Positions 2,861-43,084 of a DNA stretch of 64,000 bases are shown piece by piece. How positions within the stretch are numbered: position 1 is the stretch's first letter; every line of letters begins with the position of its first letter. Source of the DNA: Nanobdellota archaeon (GTDB taxonomy: Archaea > Nanobdellota > Nanobdellia > Parvarchaeales > Parvarchaeaceae); the NCBI GenBank assembly GCA_021802105.1, contig JAKAAW010000001.1:8150-72149 (forward strand). Reading direction: 5' to 3'. The position numbers and the translations under genes are program-made. The notes beneath the pieces were generated by a model. It saw only the letters and a list, made by a program, of their open reading frames with translations. It was not told the origin of the DNA and did not search any database.

Positions 2861-2903
2861 GGCACTATCTAAAAAACTTTATAATTGCATGGAGATTTAT
2901 CAA

Positions 2904-4557: not shown

Positions 4558-4561
4558 ACAT

Positions 4562-5512: not shown

Positions 5513-5513
5513 T

Positions 5514-7124: not shown

Positions 7125-7967
7125 ATGATATCATATTTAGTATCGCTTATATCTATATTCGCAATCGCAACAATGTCTCTTGCCGCTTATTTCGATATAA
7201 GAACGCGGGAAGTGCCTGATTTTATCAGCTACCTAATGGTAGCAGGAGGGTTGTCTATTAACTTAGCTATTTCAATTACTTCAGGATCGATACTAAACTT
7301 AGAATTTCTTCCTTTAGCTATTCTACTTCTTTTTGGATTCTCATACCTTATGTATAGGTCAGGCCAATGGGGAGGAGGGGACGTTAAGTTAATGTTAGGT
7401 CTGTCCATGATTTTTACCGCAGGGGACCTTTTTTCACACTTCTCATTTATAGCTCTTTTCATAAACATGCTTATCTTTGGGGGGCTCTATGGAATAGTTG
7501 GAACCGTCGTATACGGGCTCGCCAAAATTAAAAAACTTTATCGCTTTCTGAAGATTTATGATATTCTACTAGTTGGTGTTGGTGCAGCTGCCATAACACT
7601 TATAGTTCTGTATATCCCAGCCCCATTCAGCTTCCTTATAGCGTTCTCAGCGTTTCTTCTTGTATCTATGAGGTATATCTATATAGTGGCCCAGAACTTG
7701 ATGTTCATAGACACTAGCGTAAATAAGCTGACAGAGGGCGATTGGCTTGCAGATGATGTAAAGGACGGATCTGGGAAAATAATAGTAAAACGTAGGCAGA
7801 CAGGGCTTCTGTTGGAGGACATAAAGAAACTTAAAGATCATGGCGTGAAAACAGTCCTAATCAAGATAGGTCTACCTTTTGTGCCCGGTTTATTAGCAGG
7901 AGTGGTGATTACGGTTGTTATTGGAAATCCCCTACTCCATCTAGTAGTTTTAAACACAGGACTATAA
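7125..7967 (+). CDS. type IV prepilin/preflagellin peptidase (A24 family, PibD/FlaK-like) with a C-terminal extension
   Basis: It is a polytopic membrane protein with a first catalytic Asp motif 'YFDIRTREVPD' in the N-terminal TM region and a second Asp in the 'QWGGGDVKLM' (GxGD) motif. Both are diagnostic of A24 aspartic prepilin peptidases. Confidence 0.75.
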   Translation: MISYLVSLISIFAIATMSLAAYFDIRTREVPDFISYLMVAGGLSINLAISITSGSILNLEFLPLAILLLFGFSYLMYRSGQWGGGDVKLMLGLSMIFTAGDLFSHFSFIALFINMLIFGGLYGIVGTVVYGLAKIKKLYRFLKIYDILLVGVGAAAITLIVLYIPAPFSFLIAFSAFLLVSMRYIYIVAQNLMFIDTSVNKLTEGDWLADDVKDGSGKIIVKRRQTGLLLEDIKKLKDHGVKTVLIKIGLPFVPGLLAGVVITVVIGNPLLHLVVLNTGL

Positions 7968-9042: not shown

Positions 9043-9062
9043 GTGACTGTACAATTGCAAAA
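9043..9062 (+). repeat. 5' strand of the 23S rRNA processing stem (tgtgactgtacaattgcaaa), perfectly complementary to 11918-11937
   Basis: A 20-nt perfect inverted repeat flanks the 23S gene, as expected for the archaeal pre-rRNA processing helix. Confidence 0.7.
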
Positions 9063-11917
9063 CACCAAACTATTAGATGGATGACTTGGTTCAGGTGCCG
9101 ATGAAGGACGCAGCAAGTTGCGATAAGGGCACGGGAGGCGCAGACGACCGTTGATCGTGCTGTTTTTGAATGCGTGATGCCTGCATGTAAATGCAGATTC
9201 CTTCATACGAAGGAAAGGGAACGCAGGGAACTAAAACATTTTAGTACCTGCAGGAAAAGAAATCAATCGAGATTCCCCCAGTAATGGCGAACGAAAAGGG
9301 AATAGGGCAAACCGAATCCGCAGCAATGCGGAAATGTGGTGCGAATCATGGCCGTATAGAAGGAGGCGAAGTCGACTGGAATGTCGCGTCATAGAGAGTG
9401 ACAACCTCGTAGTCTTCGGAAATGCGGTCATCGTATAGAGTAGCAGAGGTCGATACTCTTCTGTGAATACGGGTGTCAAAAACATCCAACCCTAAATACA
9501 ACCTGAAACCGATAGAGTATAGTAGCGTGAGCGAAAGTTGAAAAGCACTCTTGATGAGAGGGCGAAAAGAACCTGAAATCTAATAGTTATAGTTGTTGCG
9601 GCGCGTTGTGATTGCGTCAATAAATAAGCGTAATCAAGTGTTGCAACATCCTTTTAGCATAAAGGGGCAGGGAGTTTACGAGTACGGCAAGGCTAACGAA
9701 AGGGAGCCGAAGCGAAAGCGAGCACGCAAGTGCCGGTAGGAAACTGCCGTGAGTCGTATTTGTAAGACCCGAAGCCGTGCGATCTATACATGTGCAGGGT
9801 GAAGTGAGGATTACTCTTCATGGAGGCCCGAAAAGGTCGGGAACTATCTCGTCTTTTGACATGTGTATAGGGGCGAAAAACCAATCGTGCACGGCAATAG
9901 CTGGTTCCCATCGAAATATCCCATAGGATAGCTTTTGTCTCGTTGTGTTGAGGGTAAAGATACTGATCGTACAGATAGGGACCGAAAGGTCCCACTGCAC
10001 TGTCAAACTCAGAATATCAACATGGCAAGGGGCAAAAGTTGGGTGTATGGCGTAAAGTTTTACACCGAGAAGGAAAAAACCTAGCCGTGAGTTAAGGCCC
10101 TTAAATGTTGACTAAGTGCAAAAAAAGGAAATCATATCTAAAACAGTTGGGAGGTAGGCTCAGAAGCGGCCATCCTTTAAAAAGTGTGTTACAACTTACC
10201 AACCTAGGTATGACGACCTAAAAATGGACGGGGCTAAGTCAACTGCCGAAACTCACGATTGTCGTAAGACAATGGTAGATGGGCGTGCCTATGGACTAGA
10301 AGTCTGTTCGTAAGGGCAGATGGATCTGTAAGGCATTGAGAATCCTGCCAGGTGTAGCAAAGAAATAGGTGAGAATCCTATCCACCGCATGTGCAAGGGT
10401 TCCTTGTTTTAAGCTTATCTAACAAGGGTTAGTCGGTCCTAAGTGTCGTTTCGAAAGGAACGCCGCAAATGGGAACGCGTTTAATATTACGCGACCACAT
10501 GCGTTTTATCACGTACCACGCGTTGAGATATGCGGAGTGGTCCCGTCGGATCATCCACGGATACGTCGTGTTCGAGAGACGTAATGTCGAGAAGACATGG
10601 AAGTGTCTGTGATGCAGCGATGCATTCGCAGATTCCCAGCGCTAATAAAAACGTACGTGTCATGAACGCAGGTGACCGTACCGAAAACCGACACAGGTGC
10701 ACTGGCTGAGAAGGCTAAGGTGAGGGATTTAAACCGGGTAAGGGAAATCGGCAAATCAGTCCTGTAAGTTCGCAATAAAGGATCCCTGATCTGGTCTTAA
10801 AAGCGAGATCAGGGCGCAGTGACTAGGGGAGTCTAACTGTTTACTAAAAGCATAGCTGACTGCGAGAGAGCAATCTTTAGTACAGTCGGCGACATCTGCC
10901 CAGCACAGGTATCCGAAAGTTCGTTCCAACGGATATAAGGACCTGTTAGCGGCGGAGGTAACTGTGACCTTCTTAAGCAAGCATAATCCATTGCCAATTG
11001 ATTGTTGGCTTGTGAACGATGTAATGAGATTCCCACTGTCCCTACCTGGAAACCCGCGAAACCACCGTCCTGGTGCAAAGGCCAGGGACCTCCACAGGGT
11101 CAAAAAGACCCCAGGAACTTTACTGCAATCTCTTGTTGTAGTATTAAGATGATGGACATAGAGTAAGTAGGAGACGTTATTTCCAACGTTCCGGCGTTGG
11201 GATAGTCGAAAGTGTAACACTACTTCCATTGTCTTATACTGCTTACCTTCGGGGACAGCATGAGACGGGCAGTTTTGCTGGGGTGGCAATCCCACGAAAA
11301 GATAACATGGGAGCCCAAAGGTCATCTTAGGCGGTATAGAAATCCGCTGTTAAGTGCAATGGCAAAAGATGGCTTGACTGTGCGCTGCAATGCAAGGCGC
11401 GCAGAGGCGAAAGCCGGGCATAGCGAACACGAATGTGTGTGTTTTTGACTCCTTCGTATGACAGAAAAGCTACCCTGGGCGTAAGAGAGTTGTTGCGGAC
11501 GATAGTTCATATTGACTTCGCAGCTTGCTCCACAGTCTTTGGCTCTCCCCATCCTGGTTGTGCACAAGCAGCCAAGGGTATAGGTGTTCACTAGTTAAAG
11601 GGGACCGTGAGCTGAGTTTAGGCCGCCGCGAGGCAGGCCGGTAGTTAACTTGTGGAGGTGTTTTGATGCCTGAATGGAAGATTCGACTAGTACGAAAGGA
11701 ACAGCGAGTCGGCGCCTCTAGTTAGCGGTTATCCGACAGGGTAAGCCGCGTAGCCACGCGCTAAGGGCTAAGAGCTGAAAGCATCTAAGCTCGAAACCCC
11801 CCGTAAAAAGAGGCATCGTTGAGGTCGGGGAAAAAGACCCCGTTGATAGAATCGCCGTGTAAGAGCCGAGGCGAAAGCCGAGGTTTTCAGCGGACGATTA
11901 CTAATAAACCAAAATTC
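9063..11917 (+). rRNA. rrl: 23S ribosomal RNA (large subunit), not linked to a 16S or 5S gene in this window
   Basis: The 5' region 'GGATGACTTGG..CCGATGAAGGACG..GCGATAAGG' and 'GTACCTGCAGGAAAAGAAATCAATCGAGATTCCCCCAGTAATGGCGAACGAA' are homologous to the E. coli 23S 5' domain. The 3' region carries 'GCTGAAAGCATCTAAGCTCGAAAC' and 'GTTGATAGAATCGCCGTGTAAGAGC'. The length is ~2.85 kb, and boundaries are approximate (within about 15 nt). Confidence 0.9.
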
Positions 11918-11937
11918 TTTGCAATTGTACAGTCACA
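11918..11937 (+). repeat. 3' strand of the 23S rRNA processing stem (tttgcaattgtacagtcaca)
   Basis: It is the reverse complement of 9043-9062. Confidence 0.7.
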
Positions 11938-23054: not shown

Positions 23055-25493
23055 GTGCGTTCTACCTCTATGAGATTTTATGCAGCACCCTTGCTCATAA
23101 TTATATTAGTACTGTCTGTAGGCGCATCCCACGGCGCGCAGATATCACTAAACATTCATGAGATACCCTTTTCCGGTGTTTCGTGCACTGACCTTTCACC
23201 GTCACAGATCCAAAATGCGTACGGTTTTAACTCTCTATACAATATGGGCATCAATGGAAATGGCCAAAACGTAGCAATAGTTGTTGCTCAGGGCGATCCA
23301 ACTTTGTCCAGCGACTTGGCGGCTTTTGACTCACAATATGGTCTACCATCCCTCGTGAACGGGTCTAATCTTATACTATCTTACCCTTTCGGAGATCCAT
23401 CTTTTAATTCAAAGAACTGGACTGTCGAGACAGCCTTAGACGTTGAAGTTGTTCATTCTCTTGCGCCGCGTGCAAATATATATTTGGTAATAGCGCCAAA
23501 CGACAGCTGGCTGTTCAATGCGGTTAACTATACTATACAAAATTTGCCAGTACAAGTTATCTCACTTAGCTGGGGTGCCTCTGAGCAGTATTATTCCGCT
23601 TCTCAGGTAAACCAGATTAATAATATACTCTCTGCTGCACAAGAGAGGCACATAAGCATATTTGCGGCAAGTGGAGACAGTGGCGCGTACAATGGGTTAT
23701 CTACTTTAAATGTGAATTTCCCAGCATCCAGTCAGTATGTCATTGGGGTTGGAGGAACATCTCTATCTGCTACCTCTTCAGGCTCTTACCTAAGCGAAAC
23801 CGCTTGGAGTGGAAGCGGTGGTGGCTACAGTGCGTTCTTTCCAAAACCAGCACCTCAGCCGAATATAAGTTCTTACAGAATGGTACCTGATGTGTCTTTT
23901 AACGCAGGTACTCCCATATGTGCTTATATAAGTTCTGCTTGGGGAGGGTATTATGGTACTAGCGTAGCCGCCCCATCATGGGCAGCCATCAGTGCTCTTG
24001 TAGATCAGAGAGGAGGCGGCAGCGGAGTGGTGTCACTGAAAAGTCTTTATAGCGCGTTCTATTCCGAAGGAGGCATTGCGTATAATCTGATAAGCAGCGG
24101 CAACAACGGCTATTACTCTGCGAACGGCGGATACAGTCTGGTAACCGGGATAGGTAGTCCTAAAGTATATGCTCTAGCGCAGATACTAACAAAGGCATCA
24201 TACAAAATATCCTTTTCTGCGCTGGGTGCTGGCGCAGTTTTCGATATAAACGGAATAAACTACTCTGCACCATTTTCTCTAAATTTCAGTTACGGCCAGA
24301 AGGTATCCATGGGTGTATATGCACCATCCCATAATATGAGTAAGCGCTACGCTTTCGTTTCATACAGAGGTTTTTACAACTCAACGAATAGGACCGCAGA
24401 GTTTTATGTTGATAGCTCTGGAAACGTGACAGCTAATTTCAAAACACAGTTCGCAATAAATGAGGTTAATATAGGTGGTAACGTTAACACCACTGTATAT
24501 GCAGATAATGGAACATACTTTACCGCTTCCAGCCAGCTAAACTACATCCTATCAGGGAAAAGCTTTTCCCTTGTCGGGATAAAAATAGGTGAAAATAGCT
24601 TGGTGTACAATTCGTCTCTCCGCTTCTTTGTCAGCTCGCCTACAAGGGTCAATTTTTTGTGGAGAATAGGCAGCGTGTCAAAATTCATAATATCTGGTGT
24701 ACCACAGGGTGCCAGAGCCACCGTAAACTATACTAATTACGTTCCGCTCTCCAACAGAACAAGTACATACACAGCACTGGTCGGAAACGGAGAATCTATA
24801 CCCGTTATAGTAGGATCGAAACTGAATTACAGTGGACAGATATACCTCTCTGGATATAGATATTTTCTCCAGCCATCCAGTATCTTATCTGCGCCGGGCA
24901 TACAACTGAGTTTTGTAAAAGAATTCAGATATGTACTAACTTTCGTGTCAGCGGATAATTCAACGCTTTCTCCCACGGAAATATCCGTACTAAGTGCGTC
25001 TGCAAATAGTACCTTTTCCAACGATACAATATGGGTCCCTATCAGTGAGAATTTTAAGGTAAGTTCCGTGGAGCTTAACAATAACGGCTTCAACGCTTTA
25101 AACCACAACATAACCCTGTCTCAATACAACTATAGCTCTCCGATAAAACTACCGGTGTCCGATGTTAGCGTTCTAGTCAAGTTATATTTAGGTATACCAG
25201 TTATAGGCGCAGCCGTAAAGTTCAGTTATGACAACCTGTCGATAGAGAACTCTACAAGCAATCTTGGATCGGCACAGTTCAGCGATGTACCGAATTCTGG
25301 GTACAGTATAACAATAATGGCGTATGGGAGCAACTATACATTCTCAAATGTTTATGGTAAGAACCCGTCGTTCCAGATAAATCCTTTTATGTACCAATTA
25401 TATGTCGCGATAGCAGCGATAAGTCTTGTAATACTAATCTTTTCCGTGTGGGAAGAGCTTATGCACAGGAAAAAGAAGAGAAGCGCACAATAG
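23055..25493 (+). CDS. sedolisin-type (S53 family) serine-carboxyl peptidase, secreted, with a long C-terminal extension and a C-terminal membrane anchor
   Basis: It has a signal peptide (LLIIILVLSVGASHG) and a pro-region. Catalytic-domain motifs are 'SLSWGASE', 'FAASGDSGAY', 'GGTSLSAT' and 'YGTSVAAPSWAAISALV' (the S53 catalytic Ser in GTSxAAP). A ~450-aa S/N-rich extension follows, ending in a TM helix (LYVAIAAISLVILIFSVW) and a KKKR tail. Confidence 0.75.
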   Translation: MRSTSMRFYAAPLLIIILVLSVGASHGAQISLNIHEIPFSGVSCTDLSPSQIQNAYGFNSLYNMGINGNGQNVAIVVAQGDPTLSSDLAAFDSQYGLPSLVNGSNLILSYPFGDPSFNSKNWTVETALDVEVVHSLAPRANIYLVIAPNDSWLFNAVNYTIQNLPVQVISLSWGASEQYYSASQVNQINNILSAAQERHISIFAASGDSGAYNGLSTLNVNFPASSQYVIGVGGTSLSATSSGSYLSETAWSGSGGGYSAFFPKPAPQPNISSYRMVPDVSFNAGTPICAYISSAWGGYYGTSVAAPSWAAISALVDQRGGGSGVVSLKSLYSAFYSEGGIAYNLISSGNNGYYSANGGYSLVTGIGSPKVYALAQILTKASYKISFSALGAGAVFDINGINYSAPFSLNFSYGQKVSMGVYAPSHNMSKRYAFVSYRGFYNSTNRTAEFYVDSSGNVTANFKTQFAINEVNIGGNVNTTVYADNGTYFTASSQLNYILSGKSFSLVGIKIGENSLVYNSSLRFFVSSPTRVNFLWRIGSVSKFIISGVPQGARATVNYTNYVPLSNRTSTYTALVGNGESIPVIVGSKLNYSGQIYLSGYRYFLQPSSILSAPGIQLSFVKEFRYVLTFVSADNSTLSPTEISVLSASANSTFSNDTIWVPISENFKVSSVELNNNGFNALNHNITLSQYNYSSPIKLPVSDVSVLVKLYLGIPVIGAAVKFSYDNLSIENSTSNLGSAQFSDVPNSGYSITIMAYGSNYTFSNVYGKNPSFQINPFMYQLYVAIAAISLVILIFSVWEELMHRKKKRSAQ

Positions 25494-25508
25494 CTATTAT
25501 TTATAAAG

Positions 25509-25848
25509 TATGAGCGGAAAACTCACGATTTGAATCGTGGGATGAAAGCGGACTCAGAAATGGAAAACATAAATAGCGAAAGAGGTAGAATAACGATATG
25601 TTGACAGCATACAGGTTCAGATTGTATCCAAACAAAGAGCAAATAGAGACATTCTCCAAGTACTTCGGTTGCAGCAGAGTGGTATGGAACAAAGCCCTAG
25701 AGTTGAGAGAAAGCTATCACAAAGAGCATAAAAATGATAGGGTCTACGAGCCACGGTCTAGAGAAACAGGAACTATACGCCATGAGAAAGCTCAAGCTTT
25801 CAACAGGGGCTGGAATATCATGAATTCATTTGTGGGAGGATGTCACAA
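25509..25848 (+). mobile_element. degenerate IS200/IS605-family element remnant (MITE-like), copy B, with left and right subterminal hairpins
   Basis: It carries an LE-like hairpin ctcacgat-ttga-atcgtggg at 25522-25541. The tnpB 5' ORF (25598-25852) starts MLTAYRFRLYPNKEQIETFSKYFGCSRVVWNKALELRE, a typical TnpB N-terminus. A RE-like hairpin gaaagc-tcaa-gctttc lies at 25786-25801. The element ends 'gggaggatgtcacaat', the same terminus as copy A. Confidence 0.6.
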
Positions 25849-25852
25849 TTAA
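25598..25852 (+). pseudogene. tnpB: tnpB (IS605 OrfB) 5' fragment (84 codons), lacking the RuvC and zinc-finger regions
   Basis: The N-terminal motif MLTAYRFRLYPNKEQ is present. The ORF terminates after 84 aa, whereas intact TnpB is ~400 aa. Confidence 0.55.
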
Positions 25853-25888
25853 GGAGGTAAATCATTATATGGACAGACTCAGCATCTT

Positions 25889-28138
25889 ATGGAAGCAAAA
25901 AACAAAGATTATACAATAAATAGGGAAGAAGGTGAGATAGCACTCACTTACAAGGTACCACTGAGCGTCCTGTATCCAAACCCGGAGGACAACGAGAATA
26001 TATTCAGCAAAATAGTCAGTGCTATAATCGAATCTGGAAGCATAACATCCCTTATAATCATAAGCGACAGAAACTATGTTTACGTAAAAGATTCCGTTGA
26101 GCTTCTCAACGACCTAGCTGAACAATACAAGAACATCCTGCAATCGGACATATCAAAACCTTTCGACGCAGAGACTCAGCGCGCCCTTCCAGACGAAATG
26201 TCTATGTTCAATTATATTCTGTTCGATCGCCTGAAGATGGACCCAGTAGGCGCTTACGTTACAGGAGTCCGTGCCTTGAGAGAACTTAAGGTTAAAGCTA
26301 GAGCGTCTCCATCGTCGTCACTTGACCTCTTTGTGGAGAGGATGGACTCTCTAATGAGCCGCATAAGCGCTCTTAAGATTGTTCAGAAAAGCATGGCGTT
26401 TGTACTCGGTTACAAAATAGGAGACAGGACTCCATATAAGGCGCTCTTTAAGCCGCTTATACGACCTAATTTCACTTACACACGAATAATGTCTGAGCCA
26501 CCCATGTCCGCCATAGAAGTTGAGACGTACAAACTTAAGAATTCGGAAGGCACCGACGTTACCATATATAGGTTGCCAGGTATGTCACAATATCTCTATC
26601 ATATGTCCCCTCCAGAGCTGCTTTTGAATGTCGATGAATACAACATTCTTGACCAGGTAAGAACCGCTCTTATAGACTACAAACCGCAGGAGACGGAATT
26701 CACGGACCCTCTTAGGATGCGTGAGGTATTCTATAACATAGCAATAGACATGATAAGTGATATAAGCGAAAAAGAAGGTTATAGGCTTGCGTTCAGGGAC
26801 ATAGAGAAGTTAGCCAGCATATTAGTGAGACTGACCGTCGGATTTGGAATGACGGAGGTTATCCTTTCTGATGACAGGGTAGAGGACGTGTATATAAACG
26901 CTCCGATAAGTAAATCACCACTGTTTGTAAAACACGCAACGTATGGTGAATGCTCGACAAATATAATACCTAATGCAAAAGAAGTAGATGCTTGGGCCTC
27001 CAGGTTTAGGTTACTGTCTGGGAGACCTCTCGATGAGGGTCACCCTGTACTTGATACAGAGTTGATAACACAAAAGATACGTTCAAGGGTCGCAATAACT
27101 CAGCGTCCGCTGTCACCGAATGGTCTAAGCATAGCTTTCAGGCGGCACAGGGAAGCCCCATGGACTCTGCCGCTGTTCGTAAATAATAAGATGATATCGC
27201 CTATTGCAGCAGGTCTCCTATGGTTCTGTGTTGAAGGGGCACGTTCAGTTTTAATCAATGGTACAAGAGGCGCCGGTAAGACGTCACTTCTTACAGCACT
27301 TATGCTTATGATGATGAAGAAATACAGGATAATAACTGTAGAGGATACTCTTGAGATACCGACGGATGTGTTCAACGACATAGGTTATGATATTCTATCC
27401 ATGAAAGTACAGAGTGCGATAGTCGGCGAGAAAGCAGAGATGTCTGCAGAAGAAGGGATAAGGACGACCCTAAGGTTAGGTGACAGTGCGCTTATAGTCG
27501 GAGAGGTTAGAAGCACAGAAGCCAGGGCTCTTTATGAAGCCATGAGAGTTGGCGCGCTTTCCAATGTGGTTATGGGTACAATACATGGAGAGAGCCCTTA
27601 CGGAGTATTTGACAGAGTAGTCAATGATCTCGGTGTTCCGAAGACAAGTTTTAAGGCCACTGACCTCATAGTCTCAGTTAATAAAATAAAGAGCGTGGAC
27701 AGATTGACTGAGAGAAGAAGAGTGCTTGCAATAACAGAAGTAAGAAAGGACTGGTCGGACGACCCCAAGTATGAAAACGGGTTCGTCGATCTAGTCAAGT
27801 ACGATATAGAGAATGATATGCTAGTCCCTACAAATGATCTTCTTGAGGGCAACAGTTACATAGTCAAGGAAATCGCTTCAAAAGTAGAGGGATGGGCTGG
27901 TGATTGGGACGCAGTACTTGATAACATACAGGCAAGGGGGGAAATTTTAAAGATGATATCTGACTATGCAGATAAGACTGGTGATAGAGATATCTTGGAA
28001 GCCAAAGCCTCGACGGAAGCAGTCGATCAATATTATGAAATAGTAAACAAACTAAATGAAGAATTGGGGAGACCGCCGGACGGCAAAAGAATAGTGAGGG
28101 CGTTTGAATTATGGATAAAGGGAAGAAAACAAAGGTAA
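25889..28138 (+). CDS. type II/IV secretion-system ATPase of the FlaI/ArlI-PilB-VirB11 superfamily with an extended (~450-aa) N-terminal region
   Basis: It has a Walker A 'GTRGAGKTSLLTAL' followed by the 'ITVEDTLEI' Asp box, a 'LIVGEVRSTEA' Walker B / His-box region and 'GTIHGESP'. Its 749-aa length is ~200 aa longer than canonical FlaI. Confidence 0.8.
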   Translation: MEAKNKDYTINREEGEIALTYKVPLSVLYPNPEDNENIFSKIVSAIIESGSITSLIIISDRNYVYVKDSVELLNDLAEQYKNILQSDISKPFDAETQRALPDEMSMFNYILFDRLKMDPVGAYVTGVRALRELKVKARASPSSSLDLFVERMDSLMSRISALKIVQKSMAFVLGYKIGDRTPYKALFKPLIRPNFTYTRIMSEPPMSAIEVETYKLKNSEGTDVTIYRLPGMSQYLYHMSPPELLLNVDEYNILDQVRTALIDYKPQETEFTDPLRMREVFYNIAIDMISDISEKEGYRLAFRDIEKLASILVRLTVGFGMTEVILSDDRVEDVYINAPISKSPLFVKHATYGECSTNIIPNAKEVDAWASRFRLLSGRPLDEGHPVLDTELITQKIRSRVAITQRPLSPNGLSIAFRRHREAPWTLPLFVNNKMISPIAAGLLWFCVEGARSVLINGTRGAGKTSLLTALMLMMMKKYRIITVEDTLEIPTDVFNDIGYDILSMKVQSAIVGEKAEMSAEEGIRTTLRLGDSALIVGEVRSTEARALYEAMRVGALSNVVMGTIHGESPYGVFDRVVNDLGVPKTSFKATDLIVSVNKIKSVDRLTERRRVLAITEVRKDWSDDPKYENGFVDLVKYDIENDMLVPTNDLLEGNSYIVKEIASKVEGWAGDWDAVLDNIQARGEILKMISDYADKTGDRDILEAKASTEAVDQYYEIVNKLNEELGRPPDGKRIVRAFELWIKGRKQR

Positions 28139-30222
28139 CTCCCTTAAAGGATAGCGACATTGTAGACAACTACCTGTCATCAGGGATCGTGCCGTCTGAT
28201 CTTTATAATAAGGATCAGTCCGTGAGAGAAGAGCTTAGGTCAGTTGAATACAAAGTCTTCAAGAGGGAGAACCCCTCTTTCCTATCGAAAATTATAATTT
28301 TTGGTGCGTCAACTGTAGGAAAAGTCATCCAGTTCAGGATAAATGAAAAAGAGGAAAAGAAACTTAATACTACTCTCTACCTACTCGGCTACGATTTTGA
28401 TGCAAAGCAACTCTACGGCTTCTCTCTTTTTGTTCTAGTTCTTGGAATAGTATTAAGTATAGCCCTTTTTGCGATTTCGCAGGTATTAGTAGGACTTTTC
28501 TTTATGGCATTTGGAGTAGGAGGTTATTTCTTAGTGCAAAATTACCCAAAACAACAGCTCTCTATAAGGCTAAGCAAATCGTCTAGCGATCTCGTTACTT
28601 TTATCCTCTATCTAGTGATATTCATGCGACAGACGCCAAACCTGGAAGCAGCTGTCCAGTTTGCATCTGAAAACTTAACTAGCTATCTCGCTTTCGATCT
28701 CAAGAAACTAATGTGGGACACTGCCGCAAGAAAATACGTAAACATAAAGGAGGCACTTGACGATTTTTCAAAAAGATGGATGAAAACAAGTCCTGCATTC
28801 ACAGATGCGCTTTTCCTTGTGGAGAGTTCAACCTCTCAGGAAGATGAGGCCGGCAGACTCGCACTTCTAGACGAGGCCTCACAGAGGATATTGAGCGGAA
28901 CGTTTGAAGCAATGACGGATTATGCGTCTACTTTAAAGGAGCCCCTAAACACAGTGTATATGTTGGGTATGGTTCTGCCTGTTTTAGGTCTGGTCCTGGC
29001 TCCGATGATGATGGCGTTCGTAGCTATACCAGATTTTGGTGTTCTTCTAGCAGTAATGTATGATATAGCTCTGCCTTTATTAGTGTATTTCTTGCTTAGG
29101 GGAAGACTTTTGGTCAGACCTGCAGGGTTTGCAGCGCCGGATTTGAATGAGGTGCCTGGGCTGCCAAAAATTGGCAGCTTCTTTGTCAAGATAGGATCAA
29201 AAAAGATAAAGGTAAATGCCATGCTTCCCGCGATAGGAGTGTTTGCAATTTTTGCAGTTGTAGTAGCGTTTTTGTTCCCGTACATGCTCGTATTTGGGCC
29301 GACTCAGATATACGTTTCTGTTCTTGTAACAGCCGGCATAGGTTTTGCCCTTTTCACCTACTTCAAACTTTCAATAATACAGTTAAAATCCACGGAGGAC
29401 GAATTGATAAGAACACAGAATTCCTTCGGTGATTCACTGTTCCAGATGGGGTCTCTGCTTGCTCAAGGTTTTCCCCCTGAAACTACTATAGTAAAGGTTA
29501 GTGAGACCATGAAAAATACCCCGATGGCGGATTTCTTCAACATCACTGTCAACAATGTCCAAAATTTAGGCATGTCTATAAAGGAAGCATTTTTCAATAA
29601 AGTAAACGGATCAACCAGGTTCTTTCCATCATCAATGATAATTGCTGGCATACGAATATTCATAGAAGCATCAAGGAAAAGTGTAGCCAATGCCTCTGCT
29701 GCAACACTTTATGTCTCAAAGCATCTCGCGAACCTGCGCAGGATAAATCAGGAGGTAAAGAACCTTTTAGAGGAAGTTACTTCTGGTATGCGTGTTGAAG
29801 TCGGATTGCTGAGCCCGGTCATGGCAGGTATAGTAGTGGGATTGACGACACTAATTGGGGTGGTCTTAAGATCTCTCGCTGGGAGCATCAATAATATACA
29901 ATCGAGCGTCTCTACATCCAGCGGTGCCGGTGGAGTTGGTTCTGTAGTACCCTTCGCGTTTAGCCTATTTAATCTGAGCGGAGGGCAGATACCACTCTAC
30001 ACTTTTCAGATAATAATAGGTCTATACCTGATAAGTCTAAGTGTAATAATAGGTTACGCAATAGCTACCATTTCCCAACCTGGAGATAGGATAGTTATGA
30101 GAGACACAATCGCATCAGTCCTGCTCACATCGATGGCACTTTATATAATTATAACATTCATAGTCACGCTTGTGTTCTCTTCAGTAGGCGGACTCGTACT
30201 CGGCGCGACGCACTTAGCGTAA
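28111..30222 (+). CDS. FlaJ/ArlJ-TadC-like polytopic membrane platform protein (type IV pilus/archaellum assembly)
   Basis: It is a 703-aa integral membrane protein that immediately follows, and overlaps by 28 nt, the secretion ATPase, which is the canonical FlaI-FlaJ pairing. It has multiple TM helices with large cytoplasmic loops. The assignment is by context and topology and was not checked against the family profile. Confidence 0.55.
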   Translation: MDKGKKTKVTPLKDSDIVDNYLSSGIVPSDLYNKDQSVREELRSVEYKVFKRENPSFLSKIIIFGASTVGKVIQFRINEKEEKKLNTTLYLLGYDFDAKQLYGFSLFVLVLGIVLSIALFAISQVLVGLFFMAFGVGGYFLVQNYPKQQLSIRLSKSSSDLVTFILYLVIFMRQTPNLEAAVQFASENLTSYLAFDLKKLMWDTAARKYVNIKEALDDFSKRWMKTSPAFTDALFLVESSTSQEDEAGRLALLDEASQRILSGTFEAMTDYASTLKEPLNTVYMLGMVLPVLGLVLAPMMMAFVAIPDFGVLLAVMYDIALPLLVYFLLRGRLLVRPAGFAAPDLNEVPGLPKIGSFFVKIGSKKIKVNAMLPAIGVFAIFAVVVAFLFPYMLVFGPTQIYVSVLVTAGIGFALFTYFKLSIIQLKSTEDELIRTQNSFGDSLFQMGSLLAQGFPPETTIVKVSETMKNTPMADFFNITVNNVQNLGMSIKEAFFNKVNGSTRFFPSSMIIAGIRIFIEASRKSVANASAATLYVSKHLANLRRINQEVKNLLEEVTSGMRVEVGLLSPVMAGIVVGLTTLIGVVLRSLAGSINNIQSSVSTSSGAGGVGSVVPFAFSLFNLSGGQIPLYTFQIIIGLYLISLSVIIGYAIATISQPGDRIVMRDTIASVLLTSMALYIIITFIVTLVFSSVGGLVLGATHLA

Positions 30223-37206: not shown

Positions 37207-37953
37207 ATGAAAGAACTTACTATAAATATATTCAGGATGGACCCCGCTGTTGACAACGCAGGTAAATACAAGAAGTTCAATGTACCTGTGCAGGAAGGAA
37301 TGGTCGTGCTTGACGCTGTTAGGTATGTTCAGGAGAACATAGACCCTTCGCTTGCGCTAAGATGGAACTGTAAAGCCGCGAGATGCGGTTCATGCTCTGC
37401 TGAGATTAACGGTAGGCCGAGGTTAATGTGCAAGACTAGAGTAGATATGCTGGAGGAAGAGATAACCGTGTCGCCAATCCGAGCTTATCCTCTTATCAAG
37501 GACCTGGTAACAGATGTCTCCAATAACTATGAGATAGAGCGTAGGATACCTGCTTTCAGGCCTAAGAAGGGAGCAGCCCAACCATTTCTAATTAATCAGA
37601 TAGACGTAACAAGATCGCAGGAGTTTAGAAGGTGCATAGAGTGCTTCTTATGTCAGGATGTATGCCATGTCATAAGGGAGCACAATACAAATTATATAGG
37701 CCCTCGTCATGCGATTAAAGTCGCGTCCCTGGACATGCACCCGATGGATGGCATAGACAGATCACCAATGCTCAACGGTGATCTTGGTCTCGGTTTCTGC
37801 AATATAACCAAGTGCTGCCAAGAAGTTTGCCCTGAGGGCATAAAAATAACCGATAACGCAATAATCCCAGAAAAGGAGCGTGCCGTAGACTACAAATACG
37901 ATCCTATATTAAGGTTGGCGAGAAGACTAAGGAGGGGTTCAAGTGCAAAATAA
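37207..37953 (+). CDS. sdhB: succinate dehydrogenase iron-sulfur subunit
   Basis: The 2Fe-2S motif 'CKAARCGSCSAEINGRPRLMC' plus the 'CIECFLCQDVC' and 'C...CCQEVCP' cluster motifs are present. Confidence 0.85.
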   Translation: MKELTINIFRMDPAVDNAGKYKKFNVPVQEGMVVLDAVRYVQENIDPSLALRWNCKAARCGSCSAEINGRPRLMCKTRVDMLEEEITVSPIRAYPLIKDLVTDVSNNYEIERRIPAFRPKKGAAQPFLINQIDVTRSQEFRRCIECFLCQDVCHVIREHNTNYIGPRHAIKVASLDMHPMDGIDRSPMLNGDLGLGFCNITKCCQEVCPEGIKITDNAIIPEKERAVDYKYDPILRLARRLRRGSSAK

Positions 37954-38665
37954 CATGGCGATAAAGACATTATTGAACAGCATGATACCATCGGAGCTTT
38001 TGGAACCAAACTGGAGATTATTGTCGTTTATAGTTCTGCTGATATCAGGGATAGGAGTCCTGATGTTATATCCAATGTCTGAATTTCATGGATATGTTGA
38101 TCCATTCTATGCCCCCACTGTGTTAGTGGTGCCGATAGCTGGGCTGTTTAGATTAACATGCTACGCGTATAGAAAGGACTACCACAGGCATGTTTTCAAT
38201 CACCCCAATGCGTGTGGCATAAACATAAGAGGAGACAGTATGACAAGAGATTACTCTGGCGAGACGAAATTTTTCAGAGTAGAGAACCTGCACAGGTATT
38301 TTTTATATGCAGGTATACTGATACTCCCTTTTTTCTACTATGATTTTTATATATCGTTAATTTATTCAGGAAGCTTTGTCTTGAGGCTCGGCAGCCTGTT
38401 GTTACTGCTAAATGCAGTGGCATTAACTTTATGGGCTGCTTCATGCCATGCCCTTAGACATCTTATAGGAGGCAGAACAGATTGTTACGGCTGCGCTTTT
38501 GCAGGATCGCAAAGAAAATCGCTTTTCAATTGGCAATCTATATTGAACGGGCATCATGAATTCTTTGCATGGTTTAGTCTTTTGACTATAATATTTGTGG
38601 ACTTATACTTAAGGGGACTGGCAGCAGGAATGCCGATAGACCTTAACCTATCTAAATTATTATGA
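37943..38665 (+). CDS. putative succinate dehydrogenase membrane-anchor subunit (atypical, Cys/His-rich)
   Basis: It is a 240-aa hydrophobic protein with several TM helices and multiple Cys/His (CYAY, NACG, SCHALRH, CYGCAF). It overlaps the sdhB stop, so it is operonic. Confidence 0.4.
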   Translation: MQNNMAIKTLLNSMIPSELLEPNWRLLSFIVLLISGIGVLMLYPMSEFHGYVDPFYAPTVLVVPIAGLFRLTCYAYRKDYHRHVFNHPNACGINIRGDSMTRDYSGETKFFRVENLHRYFLYAGILILPFFYYDFYISLIYSGSFVLRLGSLLLLLNAVALTLWAASCHALRHLIGGRTDCYGCAFAGSQRKSLFNWQSILNGHHEFFAWFSLLTIIFVDLYLRGLAAGMPIDLNLSKLL

Positions 38666-38829
38666 AACAATACATACCTCCAAAATACAGATACCCTTTG
38701 TTTTTTATTGGTCTAATGACTATGATAATAACTGCAATTGCTTACAAGTTCGTATTTATACCAGAGGTAATAATCGAAGTGGTTGTTATCGTCGGGTTTG
38801 TGCTGTTTGTATCTTCATTTACTTTTTGA
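38662..38829 (+). CDS. small two-helix membrane protein (possible second SDH anchor subunit), missed by the ORF track
   Basis: It is a 55-aa ORF, MKQYIPPKYRYPLFFIGLMTMIITAIAYKFVFIPEVIIEVVVIVGFVLFVSSFTF, with an ATGA overlap with the preceding gene. Confidence 0.3.
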   Translation: MKQYIPPKYRYPLFFIGLMTMIITAIAYKFVFIPEVIIEVVVIVGFVLFVSSFTF

Positions 38830-38923
38830 CATATAAGATGCAACCCTTAGTCTTCTTAAAGTCCTTTATCATGCTTTTTTCTTATGTTTCTAAAAATAAA
38901 TAAGGATAAAAACATATTATGTT

Positions 38924-41900
38924 ATGCCAAAGTACAGCTTGACCATAAATAAAAAATCGCAATCAGCCCTAGAATACCTTTTGACATACGGTTGGGCCAT
39001 AACGATAATCGTGCTAGTTATGGCCGCCATATATTATATGGGAATACTTAACATACCTCCTTCAGGTCCTGCAATAAGCGGTTTTTCAGGTATAGAAGTC
39101 ACCGCAGTTCAGGCAAACACATCCGTTTTTGAGTTTAGCATAAAGAACAACTTGGGTATAACCGCAAATCTGTCCACATTATCGGTTTCTTTCGATGGAA
39201 ATATGTACAAATTATGGCAATGCACGGCTACAATCCTCGACCCCGGTGAAAGTGCGATATGTGCGATATTAGGAAACTTTTCAGCATCACGGATATCCGC
39301 ACAGGTATCAATGGCGTATTCTGTGTCTAATATTTTAGGAGGGGTCTCCAATGGAACCATCTCAATAACACCGCAGGTACAGTTTATCTCCAGCCCATTC
39401 TCCCCATATTCTGTAAGGATAGCGGTATACAATAATCAGTCATCAGCTACCCCAACTCCGTTTCAGCAGGCGATAAAGTTTAATCCCACTCTTTTTTCCG
39501 GTTATGAACTATCTAATCTAGGAAACATAAGGCTCTATTACAACGGGCAGGAGCTATACAGCTGGTGCGAATATGGCTGTTCAAACAACGCGAACAGTTC
39601 GCTTATATGGGTAAAACTTACGAACTCCATCGCCGCAAATTCGACTATTAATCTTACGATGACATTCGAGCCACTAACCAACTATAATTCTGTGTATTCT
39701 GGTGAAGCCCCGCAGCTCTCTCCCGTGTACGGAGAATATGACAATGGAGCTAATGTATTCAATTTTTATGATAATTTTAAAGGGACTACTCTTGATACAA
39801 GCAAATGGTCCGGAGGTTCATGCCAGGTAATTTCAAATGGGTTATTAATCCCATCAAGTTGTAGTACACAACTAAATTCAAATACTGAATTTTCTAATCC
39901 TCTAATTTTAGAGGCAGACATGAATTTCGTAGATGTGTTTAATAATGTAGGTGGGATAGACGGAATTGGGATTTTTAATGCATCAAACGGTGCAGGTACT
40001 TATTATATTGGATGGTATAGGTACTCCGGAGGATTTTTCAGCGGTGGTGAATGGAACCCATCACAAAGCTGGCCGCAGTTCCCAGTCTCTCCTTTAACTA
40101 ATCATTTTTACGTTTGGAGTATATATTGGCAACCGTCATATTCATCCGTAATGTATTTAAACTATACAGATAGCGTTTCTCCCACAACTTACCCAGGCGA
40201 TTATCCTATAAAAATTGGAATTAACGCTCAAGGGGCGGCCGAATATCTAATGAATTGGATTCGTGTGCGTTCCTATCCCCCAAATGGAAAAATGCCTTCC
40301 ACATCAATAAGCTCTATAGGAAACCAGCCAATATATACGAGAGCCATAACGTTCTACAACGGACAGAATATAGCTACTTCAAATCCCTTCCAGCAGATGT
40401 TTACAACGGATTCCGCAGTCTATTCTGCTTATGAAGCGCCAAACCTTGATAACATACAGTTCGTTTATCAGAATGGATCAATAATACCATCATGGTTGGA
40501 GTCAGGAAACAGCAGTAAATCAACAGAGACAACATACTGGCTGAAAATAGGGAGCATTCCTGCTGACGCCGGAGTGACCATCTATGAAGTGTTCTACTCT
40601 ATAGCGGATAACGTTTTCAACAACATCAACACTGGGGAGGCTCCTCAATTTTCTCCGGTGTTTGGGGAATACAATAATATAGCAAATGTCATGGATCAAG
40701 GTTTGGCATATCAGGTGTATTACGACAGTGGTGGAACATGCGACTCGACGAATTACCAGACACAGCTTTACAATTCTTCTTTGGGCAACGGCACAACAGT
40801 ACTAGGATGCGCTTCGTTTGTCTCTAATACGGCACCATTTTCAGCAATCTCTCCCGGGACGTCTCAAAACGTCGATGGAACCACGGAACCGAACGTAGTT
40901 ATAAATTATCAATCTGGGTACAGTGGCGGTGCTCCTTATCCAAATCCACCCATTGCAAACACTGCGAACTCATGGTTGGTTAAGGCGATAGGGTGGGTGA
41001 ACATCGCTTCGTCCTCTACATCGACATTTAGTGAGATAGCAGATGACGGCATCACCCTAAGCTACTCTAAGAACGGTGGAAGTAGCAGCGGCATAAATTG
41101 GCTCGGTGGCTCATCGAGCCCCAATAATTTGATATCCCAATGGCATACGACCGGCGCGGCAGCATATACAAGTAGCAGCATTTCTGCGGGGACTTATAGG
41201 ATCGAATTGGATTATTTTGAAGATGGGGGAGGCTCGTATACTGGACTTTGGTCAAGCGCTTCAGTGGATTACTATCATGCCGCTTATCCTCCCGATGGAG
41301 TCATGCCTACTGTCATAGCAGGAACAAACATCCCTCTACATACGCAACCGATAACGTTCTACAACGGACAGAATATAGCTACTTCAAATCCCTTCCAGCA
41401 GATGTTTACAACGGATTCCGCAGTCTATTCTGCTTATGAAGCGCCAAACCTTGATAACATACAGTTCGTTTATCAGAATGGATCAATAATACCATCATGG
41501 TTGGAGTCCGGTGCAAGTAACGCCGCTACTTCAACGATATACTGGCTGAAGATTGGAAGCATTCCTGCGAACGGCAAACTAACGATATATGAGGTATTTT
41601 ATCCTACTTCTATAAACATGTTCAATACCATAAATACAGGTGAGGCCCCGCAATTATCTCCGATATATGCGGAATACGACGATGGAGCAAACGTATTCAA
41701 CAATTATTGGAATTTTGCAGGGACAACCTTACCAAACGGATGGACATCAAGTATAGGTTCAAGTAGTGGTTCAGTTACAGTAAATAACGGAGTAACACTT
41801 GCTTCTGGAACGGGAGGTAATAACGGTTGGGGAACAATTAATTACCCTTTTACAATGCCAGCATCAGATCAAACGATTGTAGAAGTATATGGTAAAACAG

Positions 41901-43084
41901 CAAGCACAGGCAGGCAGAGGATGTATCTGACAGATACAGCTACTTCTATTTTTGGAGGATATTATTCTGATTTAGGATTTGATTATGGTATTTATGGAAG
42001 TTCTGAAATAACTAGTGGAGACCTGCAGTATTATTGGAATGGATATAATTCTCCTTCTAATTCTGCTTTTGCAATAAATATCCCTTATATTATACAATAC
42101 ATTTTATCAGGTTCTACTTTTTATTGGAATATTTTAAATCAAACCGAATCAACAGTAGCATCACAATCTACAACGCAACCTTCTTCAACAACTGTCTTGT
42201 CCTTGATAGATGATGACGATAGTGGAGTAACTCAATCAACATACTATTGGATTCGTATGCGTGCCTATCCTCCAAATGGACTTATGCCAGGTACAACAAT
42301 AACAGTATTCACGGAATCCGGTCTTCCAAGCGGATACAAATGGAATGTCACATATAACAGCGTGCTGCAGAGCTCTACAACGTCATCGATTACATTCTTA
42401 AATACCCAAGGCACGTATTCTTACACCGTCCCCACGCTTTCCAACTCTAGTGCAGGTTGCACAACAACATACACTCCTTCATCTTCATCAGGAACATTGC
42501 TAGCAGGCTCAACACAGTCCATATCATTCAGCGGCTCCACCACATGTACTACAGTATTCACGGAATCCGGTCTTCCAAGCGGATACAAATGGAATGTCAC
42601 ATATAACAGCGTGCTGAAGAGCTCCACTTCCAGCACCATAACCTACTCTACTACATATACAGGAACGCAGCCGAGTTACTCTTACACCGTCCCCACGCTT
42701 TCCAACTCTAGTGCAGGTTGCACAACAACATACACTCCTTCGTCTTCACCTTCTAGCCCTGTTGCTGTTGGGTCTTTAGTATCTGTTACTTTTACCCCCC
42801 TGACAACGTGTACTACGACATTCACAGAATCTGGTTTACCAGGAGGGTACACCTGGTCAGTCGACTATGGCGGCACAACGTATTCCGCATCTAGTGGATC
42901 CCAAATACAATTCACGACGGCGCCTGGTACTTATTCATTTTCAGTAAGTCCAGTTGACGAGTCACCACTTACATCATGTGCAGCTACAATAGTAGAGTAT
43001 TATGTTTATTCTCCTTCCCCTTCTTCGGGGTCATTAGTAGCAGGTTCGCCGCAATCAATAACCTATTCATTGGTTTGTCCGTGA
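38924..43084 (+). CDS. giant (1386 aa) secreted protein with a class III (prepilin-like) signal peptide, three tandem ~330-aa modules and three C-terminal ~85-aa repeats; putative pilus-tip or adhesin-like surface protein
   Basis: The N-terminus 'MPKYSLTINKKSQSALEYLLTYGWAITIIVLVMAAIYYMG' resembles the archaeal class III signal motif (Q-S-x-x-E-Y-L-L). Modules repeat '...FYNGQNIATSNPFQQ...NL.NIQFVYQNG..IPSWLESG...YWLK.GSIPA...YEVFY...INTGEAPQ.SP.YGEYD.GANVFN'. The C-terminal repeats read 'TVFTESGLPSGYKWNVTYNSVL.SST'. It is heavily sequon-rich. Confidence 0.7.
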   Translation: MPKYSLTINKKSQSALEYLLTYGWAITIIVLVMAAIYYMGILNIPPSGPAISGFSGIEVTAVQANTSVFEFSIKNNLGITANLSTLSVSFDGNMYKLWQCTATILDPGESAICAILGNFSASRISAQVSMAYSVSNILGGVSNGTISITPQVQFISSPFSPYSVRIAVYNNQSSATPTPFQQAIKFNPTLFSGYELSNLGNIRLYYNGQELYSWCEYGCSNNANSSLIWVKLTNSIAANSTINLTMTFEPLTNYNSVYSGEAPQLSPVYGEYDNGANVFNFYDNFKGTTLDTSKWSGGSCQVISNGLLIPSSCSTQLNSNTEFSNPLILEADMNFVDVFNNVGGIDGIGIFNASNGAGTYYIGWYRYSGGFFSGGEWNPSQSWPQFPVSPLTNHFYVWSIYWQPSYSSVMYLNYTDSVSPTTYPGDYPIKIGINAQGAAEYLMNWIRVRSYPPNGKMPSTSISSIGNQPIYTRAITFYNGQNIATSNPFQQMFTTDSAVYSAYEAPNLDNIQFVYQNGSIIPSWLESGNSSKSTETTYWLKIGSIPADAGVTIYEVFYSIADNVFNNINTGEAPQFSPVFGEYNNIANVMDQGLAYQVYYDSGGTCDSTNYQTQLYNSSLGNGTTVLGCASFVSNTAPFSAISPGTSQNVDGTTEPNVVINYQSGYSGGAPYPNPPIANTANSWLVKAIGWVNIASSSTSTFSEIADDGITLSYSKNGGSSSGINWLGGSSSPNNLISQWHTTGAAAYTSSSISAGTYRIELDYFEDGGGSYTGLWSSASVDYYHAAYPPDGVMPTVIAGTNIPLHTQPITFYNGQNIATSNPFQQMFTTDSAVYSAYEAPNLDNIQFVYQNGSIIPSWLESGASNAATSTIYWLKIGSIPANGKLTIYEVFYPTSINMFNTINTGEAPQLSPIYAEYDDGANVFNNYWNFAGTTLPNGWTSSIGSSSGSVTVNNGVTLASGTGGNNGWGTINYPFTMPASDQTIVEVYGKTASTGRQRMYLTDTATSIFGGYYSDLGFDYGIYGSSEITSGDLQYYWNGYNSPSNSAFAINIPYIIQYILSGSTFYWNILNQTESTVASQSTTQPSSTTVLSLIDDDDSGVTQSTYYWIRMRAYPPNGLMPGTTITVFTESGLPSGYKWNVTYNSVLQSSTTSSITFLNTQGTYSYTVPTLSNSSAGCTTTYTPSSSSGTLLAGSTQSISFSGSTTCTTVFTESGLPSGYKWNVTYNSVLKSSTSSTITYSTTYTGTQPSYSYTVPTLSNSSAGCTTTYTPSSSPSSPVAVGSLVSVTFTPLTTCTTTFTESGLPGGYTWSVDYGGTTYSASSGSQIQFTTAPGTYSFSVSPVDESPLTSCAATIVEYYVYSPSPSSGSLVAGSPQSITYSLVCP

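Follow-up and report, generated by a model that had tools for sequence, protein, structure and literature searches.

A candidate adhesin of Parvarchaeota with a prepilin-type N-terminus, lectin-like modules and an uncurated repeat family

Introduction

How ultrasmall DPANN archaea recognise and hold their hosts is, to our knowledge, largely unknown. Among the closest described systems are the large DUF2341 proteins encoded in pilus loci of the Methanococcus type, for which a tip-adhesin role like that of PilY1 has been predicted by analogy (Makarova, Koonin & Albers 2016; PMC4858521), and the LamG-like jelly-roll proteins expanded in 'Ca. Mancarchaeum acidiphilum' Mia14 and in DPANN, some of which are linked to type IV pilus loci and for which a role in host interaction has been proposed (Golyshina 2017; PMC5498576). 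A DUF2341 gene of the epd pilus locus of M. maripaludis, MMJJ_08210, received repeated insertions in a transposon screen for transformation defects (PMC10133366), and ARMAN cells have been seen to touch Thermoplasmatales via pili-like structures (PMC5864196). Here we describe a gene for a 1386-residue protein, found in a 64,000-nucleotide stretch of contig JAKAAW010000001.1 (hereafter 'the window', whose numbering is used throughout), which probably encodes a surface-displayed, lectin-like modular adhesin with a prepilin-type signal, belonging to a member of the Parvarchaeota (DPANN).

Like the DUF2341 proteins of the Epd loci (arCOG03508 and relatives, MJ1470-like), to which we liken it by description and which are proposed pilus-associated adhesins, the protein is archaeal, large and apparently secreted, and its genome, too, holds a prepilin peptidase and an assembly ATPase. 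Unlike theirs, its gene lies outside a pilus locus and in a DPANN archaeon rather than in Methanococcales, and it carries DUF2341 three times – every copy being joined to a jelly roll or to a PA14-like domain – together with repeats of ~85 residues. PMC4858521 assigns class III signals to the predicted minor pilins of the same loci and does not explicitly extend them to the DUF2341 proteins. With the Mia14 set, the protein has in common the superphylum, the acidic habitats and the jelly-roll (concanavalin-A/LamG) fold, and its own homologues extend to Micrarchaeota, including A_DKE; that description stays at the level of a genome survey, whereas the pilin-type N-terminus, the DUF2341 prefix, the PA14-like module and the ~85-residue repeats are mapped here and not there.

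Domain architecture

The gene is the open reading frame (ORF) 38924..43084 on the plus strand, which starts with ATG and encodes a protein beginning MPKYSLTINKKSQSALEYLLTYGWAITIIVLVMAAIYY, just as stated in the original prediction, a reading of this DNA made from its sequence without database searches. To judge from its composition (Ser 14.9%, Thr 10.8%, Asn 7.9%, Lys+Arg 2.4%; Ser and Thr together 26%), this would be an extracellular protein of an archaeon, with 20 N-x-S/T sequons and 14 Cys residues that make seven pairs, each inside one domain. Hydropathy over the whole length gives a single segment of membrane-spanning hydrophobicity, aa ~14–47.

The order of its domains is given in Table 1. 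Pfam finds DUF2341 (PF10102) three times (E 3.9e-15; 56.5 bits against a gathering cut-off of 23.4), and the same family matches 27 of the 32 sequences scanned, these being the first 470 residues of the protein and 31 homologues. In a structural model of aa 1–470 built from 32 aligned sequences (model A; predicted local distance difference test, pLDDT, 80; predicted template-modelling score, pTM, 0.69), a helix (12–39) is followed by a beta-sandwich (50–148), the DUF2341 region (162–260) and a jelly roll (281–462). When compared with the PDB by Foldseek, model A matches GH16-type glucanases and pseudo-glucanases, the legume-lectin-like domains of VIP36, Emp46 and Emp47, CBM66 and Cip1, with E-values of 3e-5 to 7e-3 at 9–17% identity, a probability of 1.0 and target-normalised TM scores (TMt) of ~0.41–0.55, over compact domains; for GH16, legume-lectin and CBM66 folds, the E-value is 3e-5 and TMt ~0.45–0.55. 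The second half of module 1 is thus modelled as a concanavalin-A-like lectin/glucanase fold; it ends in W.R.RSYPPNGKMP. Module 3 is homologous to module 1 and to homologues bearing Laminin_G_3, and its jelly-roll fold is seen again in Foldseek matches of a second model (model B; aa 595–1386, pLDDT 66), in which the third DUF2341 copy has a pLDDT of ~66–88 per 10-residue block, mostly 77–88. A search of the modules for DUF2341 and for LamG- or concanavalin-like domains, which the original prediction had suggested, was therefore positive on both counts, by Pfam for the former and by fold for the latter. A whole-protein phmmer search of the PDB gave no match.

In module 2, DUF2341 is followed by a different domain of ~210 residues. 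A profile of eight orthologous segments (A3) has one match in the PDB, the PA14 tandem of RsgI3 from Clostridium thermocellum (6qe7), at E 1.2e-3, with an alignment covering the DDG and W...G.Y.I..Y motifs; Foldseek independently finds 6qe7_B with model B (E 2.4e-3, probability 0.98). Set against the RsgI3 domain itself, the segment aligns at both DDG...L and W...G.Y.I...Y and yields the same structural match, yet it has no PF07691 match, is only 15–16% identical and is modelled at low confidence (pLDDT ~40–73). Pfam gives no match for this segment in eight members. We therefore call aa 595–805 a PA14-like domain with moderate confidence. The best PDB matches of model B as a whole are Gram-positive adhesins and pilus tip or ancillary pilins with tandem beta domains: the TIE protein of B. 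anthracis (E 3e-7), PitA (E 2e-4), SpyCEP, 4oq1 and YwfG. The concanavalin-A-like and PA14-like folds agree with a lectin-like adhesin.

The internal repeats are far above chance. Whole-protein self-BLAST gave the identity match only; segment-wise BLASTP pairs aa 181–290 with 825–936 (E 1e-30), aa 481–591 with 816–926 (77% identity, E 8e-58) and aa 181–300 with 490–606 (E 5e-21), and, at the C-terminus, aa 1124–1200 with 1207–1288 (72% identity, E 1e-33) and with 1295–1379 (47% identity, E 3e-18). Of the repeats read from the sequence beforehand, the three C-terminal units of ~85 residues are confirmed by these identities to the first unit. The three modules of ~330 residues are real as repeats, by BLASTP and by the three DUF2341 matches, but they are not equivalent, since modules 1 and 3 combine DUF2341 with a jelly roll and module 2 has another second half. 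At the DNA level, a direct repeat of 186 nt (94% identity) lies at 40321/41326, and repeats of 77 and 72 nt (97% identity) lie inside C-repeats 1 and 2; such near-identical repeats point to recent duplication or gene conversion.

The N-terminal signal

An archaeal class III (prepilin-type) signal consists of a short basic leader ending in [KR]-[G/A/S], with a small residue at position –1, directly before a hydrophobic helix of ~20–25 residues; a Glu stands at +5, a feature shared with the type IV pilins of bacteria. The N-terminus of the protein has this layout, with cleavage itself presumed, and reads K10-K11-S12 / Q13-S-A-L-E17-Y-L-L-T-Y-G23-W24 (KKS/QSALEYLLTYGW). In model A, the helix at aa 12–39 leads into the beta-sandwich.

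This layout is supported by its conservation. Of 138 sequences (homologues and cluster members), 79 show a short leader and, after it, Q...E/D with a hydrophobic stretch; these 79 reduce to 54 distinct N-termini. Q at +1 and E/D at +5 were demanded by the search pattern and are no independent evidence; at the other positions, K/R stands at –2 in 43 of the 54, S/G/A at –1 in 49 and G at +11 in 49, while +5 is E, not D, in 51. The leader is mostly 3–14 residues long. In the alignments, Q13 never varies, and the conservation of G23 and W24 reaches 90% or more.

A profile of the N-domain (A6) has two weak matches in the PDB, to CBM3 (E 0.008) and to the archaeal type IV pilin AapB (8q30; E 0.056), the subunit of the Aap adhesive pilus of Sulfolobus acidocaldarius (PMC11178815). 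AapB, like the modelled N-terminus here, has a hydrophobic helix followed by a beta-sandwich, and the profile alignment spans both.

The ~85-residue repeat family

The C-terminal units share the motif FTESGLPxGYxWxVxY...C...PSxSSG...C, and the family as a whole the consensus F.ESGLP.G..W.V.Y.G...(~20)...G.Y.F......C...PS.SSG...AG....I.F...C. Model B renders them as all-beta units with a pLDDT mostly of 63–92 per 10-residue block and one dip to 49. The alignment over C-repeats 2 and 3 is very shallow because unanchored repeat triplets, scattered in the alignments, were left out; the model is nonetheless confident there.

The repeat belongs to a very large family without a curated entry in the copy of Pfam used. 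The 138 sequences contain 239 copies of it, spread over 51 of them, and a HMMER search of 1.84 billion cluster representatives (50% identity) finds 6,485 proteins at E≤1e-3 and 4,275 at E≤1e-10, a single protein holding as many as 44 copies. Neither the repeats nor seven repeat-rich proteins matched a family for the repeat in that Pfam copy, and no significant sequence match was obtained in the PDB. PF18998 was considered and set aside, as it covers an adjoining domain in some repeat-bearing proteins and not the repeat. One Thermoplasmata fragment with the repeat is labelled 'DUF7619 domain-containing' by NCBI, a name that may or may not stand for the repeat. In most homologues (P0004–P0013 being those compared), the repeats are placed like a stalk, after the N-domain and before the DUF2341 modules, and here they lie at the distal C-terminus; the family shuffles the order of its modules freely.

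Homologues and strain variation

The alanyl-tRNA synthetase encoded in the window is 56–62% identical to every named best match, all 'Candidatus Parvarchaeota / Parvarchaeum' and including ARMAN-4, and ~42% identical to those of methanogens. These identities place the organism among the Parvarchaeota and rule out an origin in Thermoplasmatales; the earlier suggestion of an organism lacking a cell wall is therefore not supported, as the genome is not that of a wall-less Thermoplasma.

An identical protein (P0121) and variants differing at 3–4 residues are found in the metagenome-assembled genome GCA_027370255.1 and in sister ENA assemblies. The 307 homologues come nearly all from Parvarchaeota, Micrarchaeota and Nanoarchaeota and have the same N-terminus with shuffled modules; relatives in species representatives are mainly from Micrarchaeota (including Ca. 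Micrarchaeum A_DKE), Parvarchaeota (ARMAN-5), Nanoarchaeota (Nanopusillus) and Marsarchaeota, and a few are on contigs binned to other taxa.

In a near-clonal strain, the same sdh-to-radA context holds a 960-residue allele (P0002; locus L071, 6001..9069). Repeat number, which the original prediction had suggested comparing among related strains, differs here: the allele has two C-repeats, not three. It also lacks the stretch from the middle of the second DUF2341 copy to the middle of the third, so that the PA14-like domain is gone, and is ~80% identical in protein sequence over the aligned stretch including the repeat region. Variation between the strains is concentrated in this gene: the flanks are 99.8–100% identical at the nucleotide level (sdhA 1746/1749, upstream intergenic region 94/94, ParA-type gene 1038/1038, radA 1065/1065), and the repeat region and a small downstream ORF have diverged to 85–94%. 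The substitutions in the 960-residue version show it to be a true allele. The loss of the module could nevertheless have come from a collapse of the assembly at the 186-nt repeat; either the locus is a hot spot of recombination or, as regards the deletion alone, it may be the site of such a collapse. In Nanoarchaeota, surface proteins are enriched in non-synonymous single-nucleotide polymorphisms (PMC6142677).

Viral relatives

When model B was compared with predicted viral structures (BFVD), it matched the DUF2341 protein A0A3Q8Q3Y8 of Sulfolobales Beppu rod-shaped virus 1 at E 1.5e-16 and 23% identity, with further matches in Sulfolobus ellipsoid virus 1, Sulfolobus polyhedral virus 2, the acid-mine-drainage virus AMDV3 and a LamG protein of a lipothrixvirus. 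A relative is also encoded on three IMG/VR contigs, as a 530-residue DUF2341 protein on two of them, which are rudivirus-like (L073, 9359..10951; L072, 5486..7078). L073 carries a rudiviral coat protein (Sulf_coat_C, E 7e-74) and, directly upstream of the DUF2341 gene, an ORF of 1066 residues, presumed to be of the rudiviral terminal-fibre type, with a full-length match to phrog_7334 (unknown function) and weak N-terminal matches to tail tape-measure families.

The viral protein shares a whole DUF2341 and jelly-roll module with the 1386-residue protein, including the W.R.RAYPPNG.MP tail, at 31–32% identity (pairwise E 2e-22). It differs in having one module, no noted class III N-terminus and a virion gene context. 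By analogy, a module common to virions and episymbionts would fit a role in surface recognition.

Genomic context

Genes for prepilin-type handling are present in the same window (Table 1). The peptidase is a candidate processing enzyme for the 1386-residue protein, and the 703-residue membrane protein, whose gene overlaps the end of the assembly ATPase gene, is on sequence grounds possibly a TadC/FlaJ-like platform. This pair ends 8.7 kb upstream of the adhesin gene, with unrelated operons between, and the peptidase gene lies 31 kb upstream. Also upstream of the ATPase, within 23055..30222, are a subtilisin-type S8 protease (812 aa) and an ORF fragment with an IS605-type helix-turn-helix.

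Two smaller ORFs with class-III-like N-termini (MHIYDKKG/ATSLSLLIVV... and MTKRA/QAPSVLFVAIAV...) lie ~0.7 kb upstream of the peptidase gene, with one minus-strand gene (6384..7124) between, and from their N-termini would be better candidates for shaft pilins than the 1386-residue protein. Within positions 1649..7967 of the window, four ORFs in a row (403, 458, 326 and 289 aa) encode secreted or membrane proteins rich in Ser, Thr and Asn, none with a Pfam match; two of them have the class-III-like N-termini (KKG/ATSLSLL..., KRA/QAPSVLF...). This cluster near the peptidase gene is probably the pilin set of the organism.

The adhesin gene follows the sdh operon and is itself followed, on the opposite strand, by a Mrp/ParA-type ATPase gene and radA. 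A TATA-like box, preceded by a T-run (38874–38880), suggests that it may have its own promoter and a short or absent leader; a scan for sigma-70 promoters and intrinsic terminators showed no enrichment, such a bacterial-type scan being inapplicable to archaea. The two small membrane ORFs that flank the gene had been proposed as possible members of one unit with it. Both exist, but the upstream one, of 55 aa, belongs to the sdh operon, as indicated by its 4-nt overlap with the preceding ORF, its position after sdhA/sdhB and the T-run and TATA-like box that intervene before the large gene, and it was accordingly excluded from the unit. At this operon end (37943..38829), the 240-residue membrane ORF and the 55-residue single-helix ORF have no Pfam match and might be unusual subunits that, in this lineage, anchor succinate dehydrogenase in the membrane. 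The downstream ORF, of 58 aa, is possibly co-transcribed with the gene; it is uncalled in the metagenomic copies, whereas the variant locus has it called in the corresponding place, with indels and a frameshift at its C-terminus (151/163 aligned nt identical).

Elsewhere in the window, 9053..11926 is a complete, solitary archaeal 23S rRNA gene, whose sequence gives rise to spurious ORFs; no Rfam gathering-level match to 16S or 5S rRNA was found anywhere in the window.

Table 1. Features of the adhesin gene and of related loci, in window coordinates
Feature	Residues	Coordinates (strand)	Basis	Remarks
Basic leader	1–12 (MPKYSLTINKKS)	38924..38959 (+)		Putative prepilin-peptidase cut after S12
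Hydrophobic N-terminal helix	13–41 (QSALEYLLTYGWAITIIVLVMAAIYYMGI)	38960..39046 (+)		Q at +1, E at +5
N-terminal beta-sandwich	42–160	39047..39403 (+)	Model A, pLDDT ~86–93	Cys100/Cys113
Module 1: DUF2341 and concanavalin-A-like jelly roll	~161–280 and ~281–465	39404..40318 (+)	PF10102; model A/Foldseek	
Module 2: DUF2341 copy 2	466–594	40319..40705 (+)	PF10102, E 0.0015 scanned alone	
Module 2: PA14-like domain	595–805	40706..41338 (+)	Profile and Foldseek	Cys606/Cys629
Module 3: DUF2341 copy 3 and jelly roll	806–930 and 931–1123	41339..42292 (+)	PF10102, BLASTP, model B	
Three ~85-aa Cys-bracketed all-beta repeats	1124–1208, 1209–1296, 1297–1386	42293..43081 (+)	BLASTP, model B	
TATA-like box, A/T-rich (ctaaaaataaataagg)		38891..38906 (+)	Read by eye	~20–30 nt before ATG
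55-aa membrane ORF, single helix		38662..38829 (+)		Start overlaps stop of 240-aa ORF by 4 nt
58-aa ORF, one hydrophobic helix		43100..43276 (+)		15 nt after stop; preceded by GGTGA
Prepilin (type IV leader) peptidase		7125..7967 (+)	Pfam Peptidase_A24, E 5.4e-12, 46.5 bits vs cut-off 26.5	
Type IV pilus/archaellum-type assembly ATPase		25889..28138 (+)	T2SSE, E 4.6e-18	
703-aa polytopic membrane protein		28111..30222 (+)	T2SSF, E 0.004, below cut-off	Overlaps ATPase end
Two ORFs with class-III-like N-termini		4562..5512 and 5514..6383 (+)	Motif scan, translations	

Interpretation and alternatives

The explanation that we favour, as a probable rather than a settled one, is that of a surface-displayed, lectin-like adhesin with a prepilin-type signal. 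The precursor would enter the membrane through its N-terminal hydrophobic helix, and the A24 peptidase would cut off the 12-residue basic leader between S12 and Q13. The mature protein, held by helix 13–41, would then serve as a low-copy minor or tip subunit of a type-IV-pilus-like fibre by way of the ATPase/TadC-like pair, or would merely be retained in the membrane, two alternatives that are indistinguishable here; the narrower claim of a pilus-borne minor or tip subunit is a tentative one, less likely than not. According to models and profiles, the ectodomain is a series of disulfide-bracketed beta domains: a pilin-like beta-sandwich, DUF2341 with a jelly roll, DUF2341 with a PA14-like domain, DUF2341 with a jelly roll again, and the three ~85-residue repeats. 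Its folds of carbohydrate-binding type would most likely have as ligands the glycans of another cell, which for Parvarchaeota is plausibly a Thermoplasmatales host, or those of a biofilm matrix, and the variation of module content between near-clonal strains is what might be expected of a surface protein facing a partner or a predator.

Several observations weigh against this explanation. None of the PF04021 Class_IIIsignal, PF07790 Pilin_N and NCBIfam archaellin/pilin models matched the N-terminal 56 residues at E≤10, and PF04021 and PF07790 were without a match in the 32 sequences scanned. The only similarity to a solved archaeal pilin, that to AapB, is not significant. PF13385 (Laminin_G_3) and PF07691 (PA14) do not match the 1386-residue protein – PF13385 is present in four of the 32 aligned sequences and in many others in the homologue list – and the fold matches are at low identity (10–17%), with the PA14 region modelled at low confidence. 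The repeats are distal to the anchor, at the far C-terminus, so that they do not make a conventional stalk here. Finally, the gene lies outside any pilus operon, with the ATPase ~9–13 kb upstream behind genes for succinyl-CoA synthetase, TldD/PmbA and sdh, and all three homologues inspected in long contigs likewise stand alone among housekeeping genes. Stand-alone pilin genes are common in archaea (PMC4858521).

The curated models deserve a closer look. An NCBIfam scan of the whole protein gave sub-threshold matches only, which we judge meaningless. Of the PF04021 motif, which we take to be QxSxExxxL, the protein retains the Q (+1) and the E (+5) but has Ala at +3 and Thr at +9. Formal membership of a class III family is therefore not established, and the claim rests on motif, conservation, structure and context. 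The class III or pilin-type N-terminus of the original prediction stands in so far as the motif layout, its conservation in homologues, the helix and beta-sandwich of the model and the peptidase, ATPase and TadC-like genes in the window all argue for it, and falls short in the lack of a match to a curated model. Of the two findings named in advance as speaking against the prediction, dissimilarity to PF04021/DUF361 was observed, in that no match was found, and similarity of the modules to an intracellular enzyme was not.

The most serious competitor, which we regard as unlikely, is a structural protein of the cell envelope (S-layer-like or glycocalyx), which would coat the cell and not ride on a pilus. 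Its N-terminus would be a signal anchor that stays uncleaved, or else a class III signal that serves for membrane anchoring only, as in the Sulfolobus bindosome. This explanation would suit a gene that stands alone both here and in homologues, a Ser/Thr/Asn-rich product with sequons typical of archaeal envelope glycoproteins, and the lack of a match to pilin hidden Markov models; large non-pilus proteins with class III signals do exist (the bindosome; PMC4858521), and multi-domain beta proteins are listed among the surface-layer components of a Micrarchaeote (Golyshina 2017; PMC5498576). Lectin-type and PA14-type folds, however, are binding modules and not lattice formers, a strain-variable number of modules is awkward for a lattice protein, and the conserved Q+1/E+5 motif with a co-resident peptidase and ATPase points to prepilin-type handling.

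Far less probable is a surface-anchored or secreted polysaccharide-degrading enzyme, that is, a GH16-like glucanase with carbohydrate-binding modules serving nutrient acquisition. It draws on GH16-type beta-glucanases being the top Foldseek matches of model A, on the CBM3 match of the N-domain and on the occurrence of PA14 in glycosidases. Yet a regular-expression scan found no GH16 catalytic E-x-D-x(x)-E in the jelly rolls, the sole such string (ELDYFE, aa 761) lying inside the PA14-like domain, and the enzymatic reading was rejected on this ground. Identity to the enzymes is 13–17%, one of the top matches is itself a pseudo-glucanase, no glycoside-hydrolase family of Pfam matches, and the non-catalytic folds of legume lectins, VIP36/Emp46 and CBM66 match about equally well. 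A major structural pilin forming the fibre shaft, to which the class-III-like N-terminus with its helix and beta-sandwich might seem to point, is scarcely credible and was rejected on size, with ~1200 of the 1386 residues appended where the solved, shaft-forming AapB has 141 in all, and with smaller class-III-like ORFs near the peptidase gene that are better shaft candidates.

Significance

The adhesin explanation leaves the current picture unchanged, since DUF2341/LamG-type proteins with links to type IV pili have been put forward in earlier genome surveys as adhesins of archaea and of DPANN. What is added here is an explicit domain map, a PA14-like module, an uncurated repeat family, a two-module allele and a module shared with viruses. 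One may speculate further, with little expectation that the whole will hold, that DPANN episymbionts and archaeal viruses exchange one host-docking module, that the adhesin gene is a recombination hot spot where, in a population clonal in other respects, the gain, loss or conversion of modules and ~85-residue repeats retunes partner specificity, and that the FTESGLP repeat constitutes a huge uncurated family of archaeal surface domains.

For the Parvarchaeota, the gene offers a concrete and well-delimited candidate adhesin, with a module-wise domain map, a candidate S12/Q13 site together with a peptidase on the same contig, and a natural two-module allele. The module shared with viruses and the repeat family that lacks a curated entry look the most rewarding to take further.

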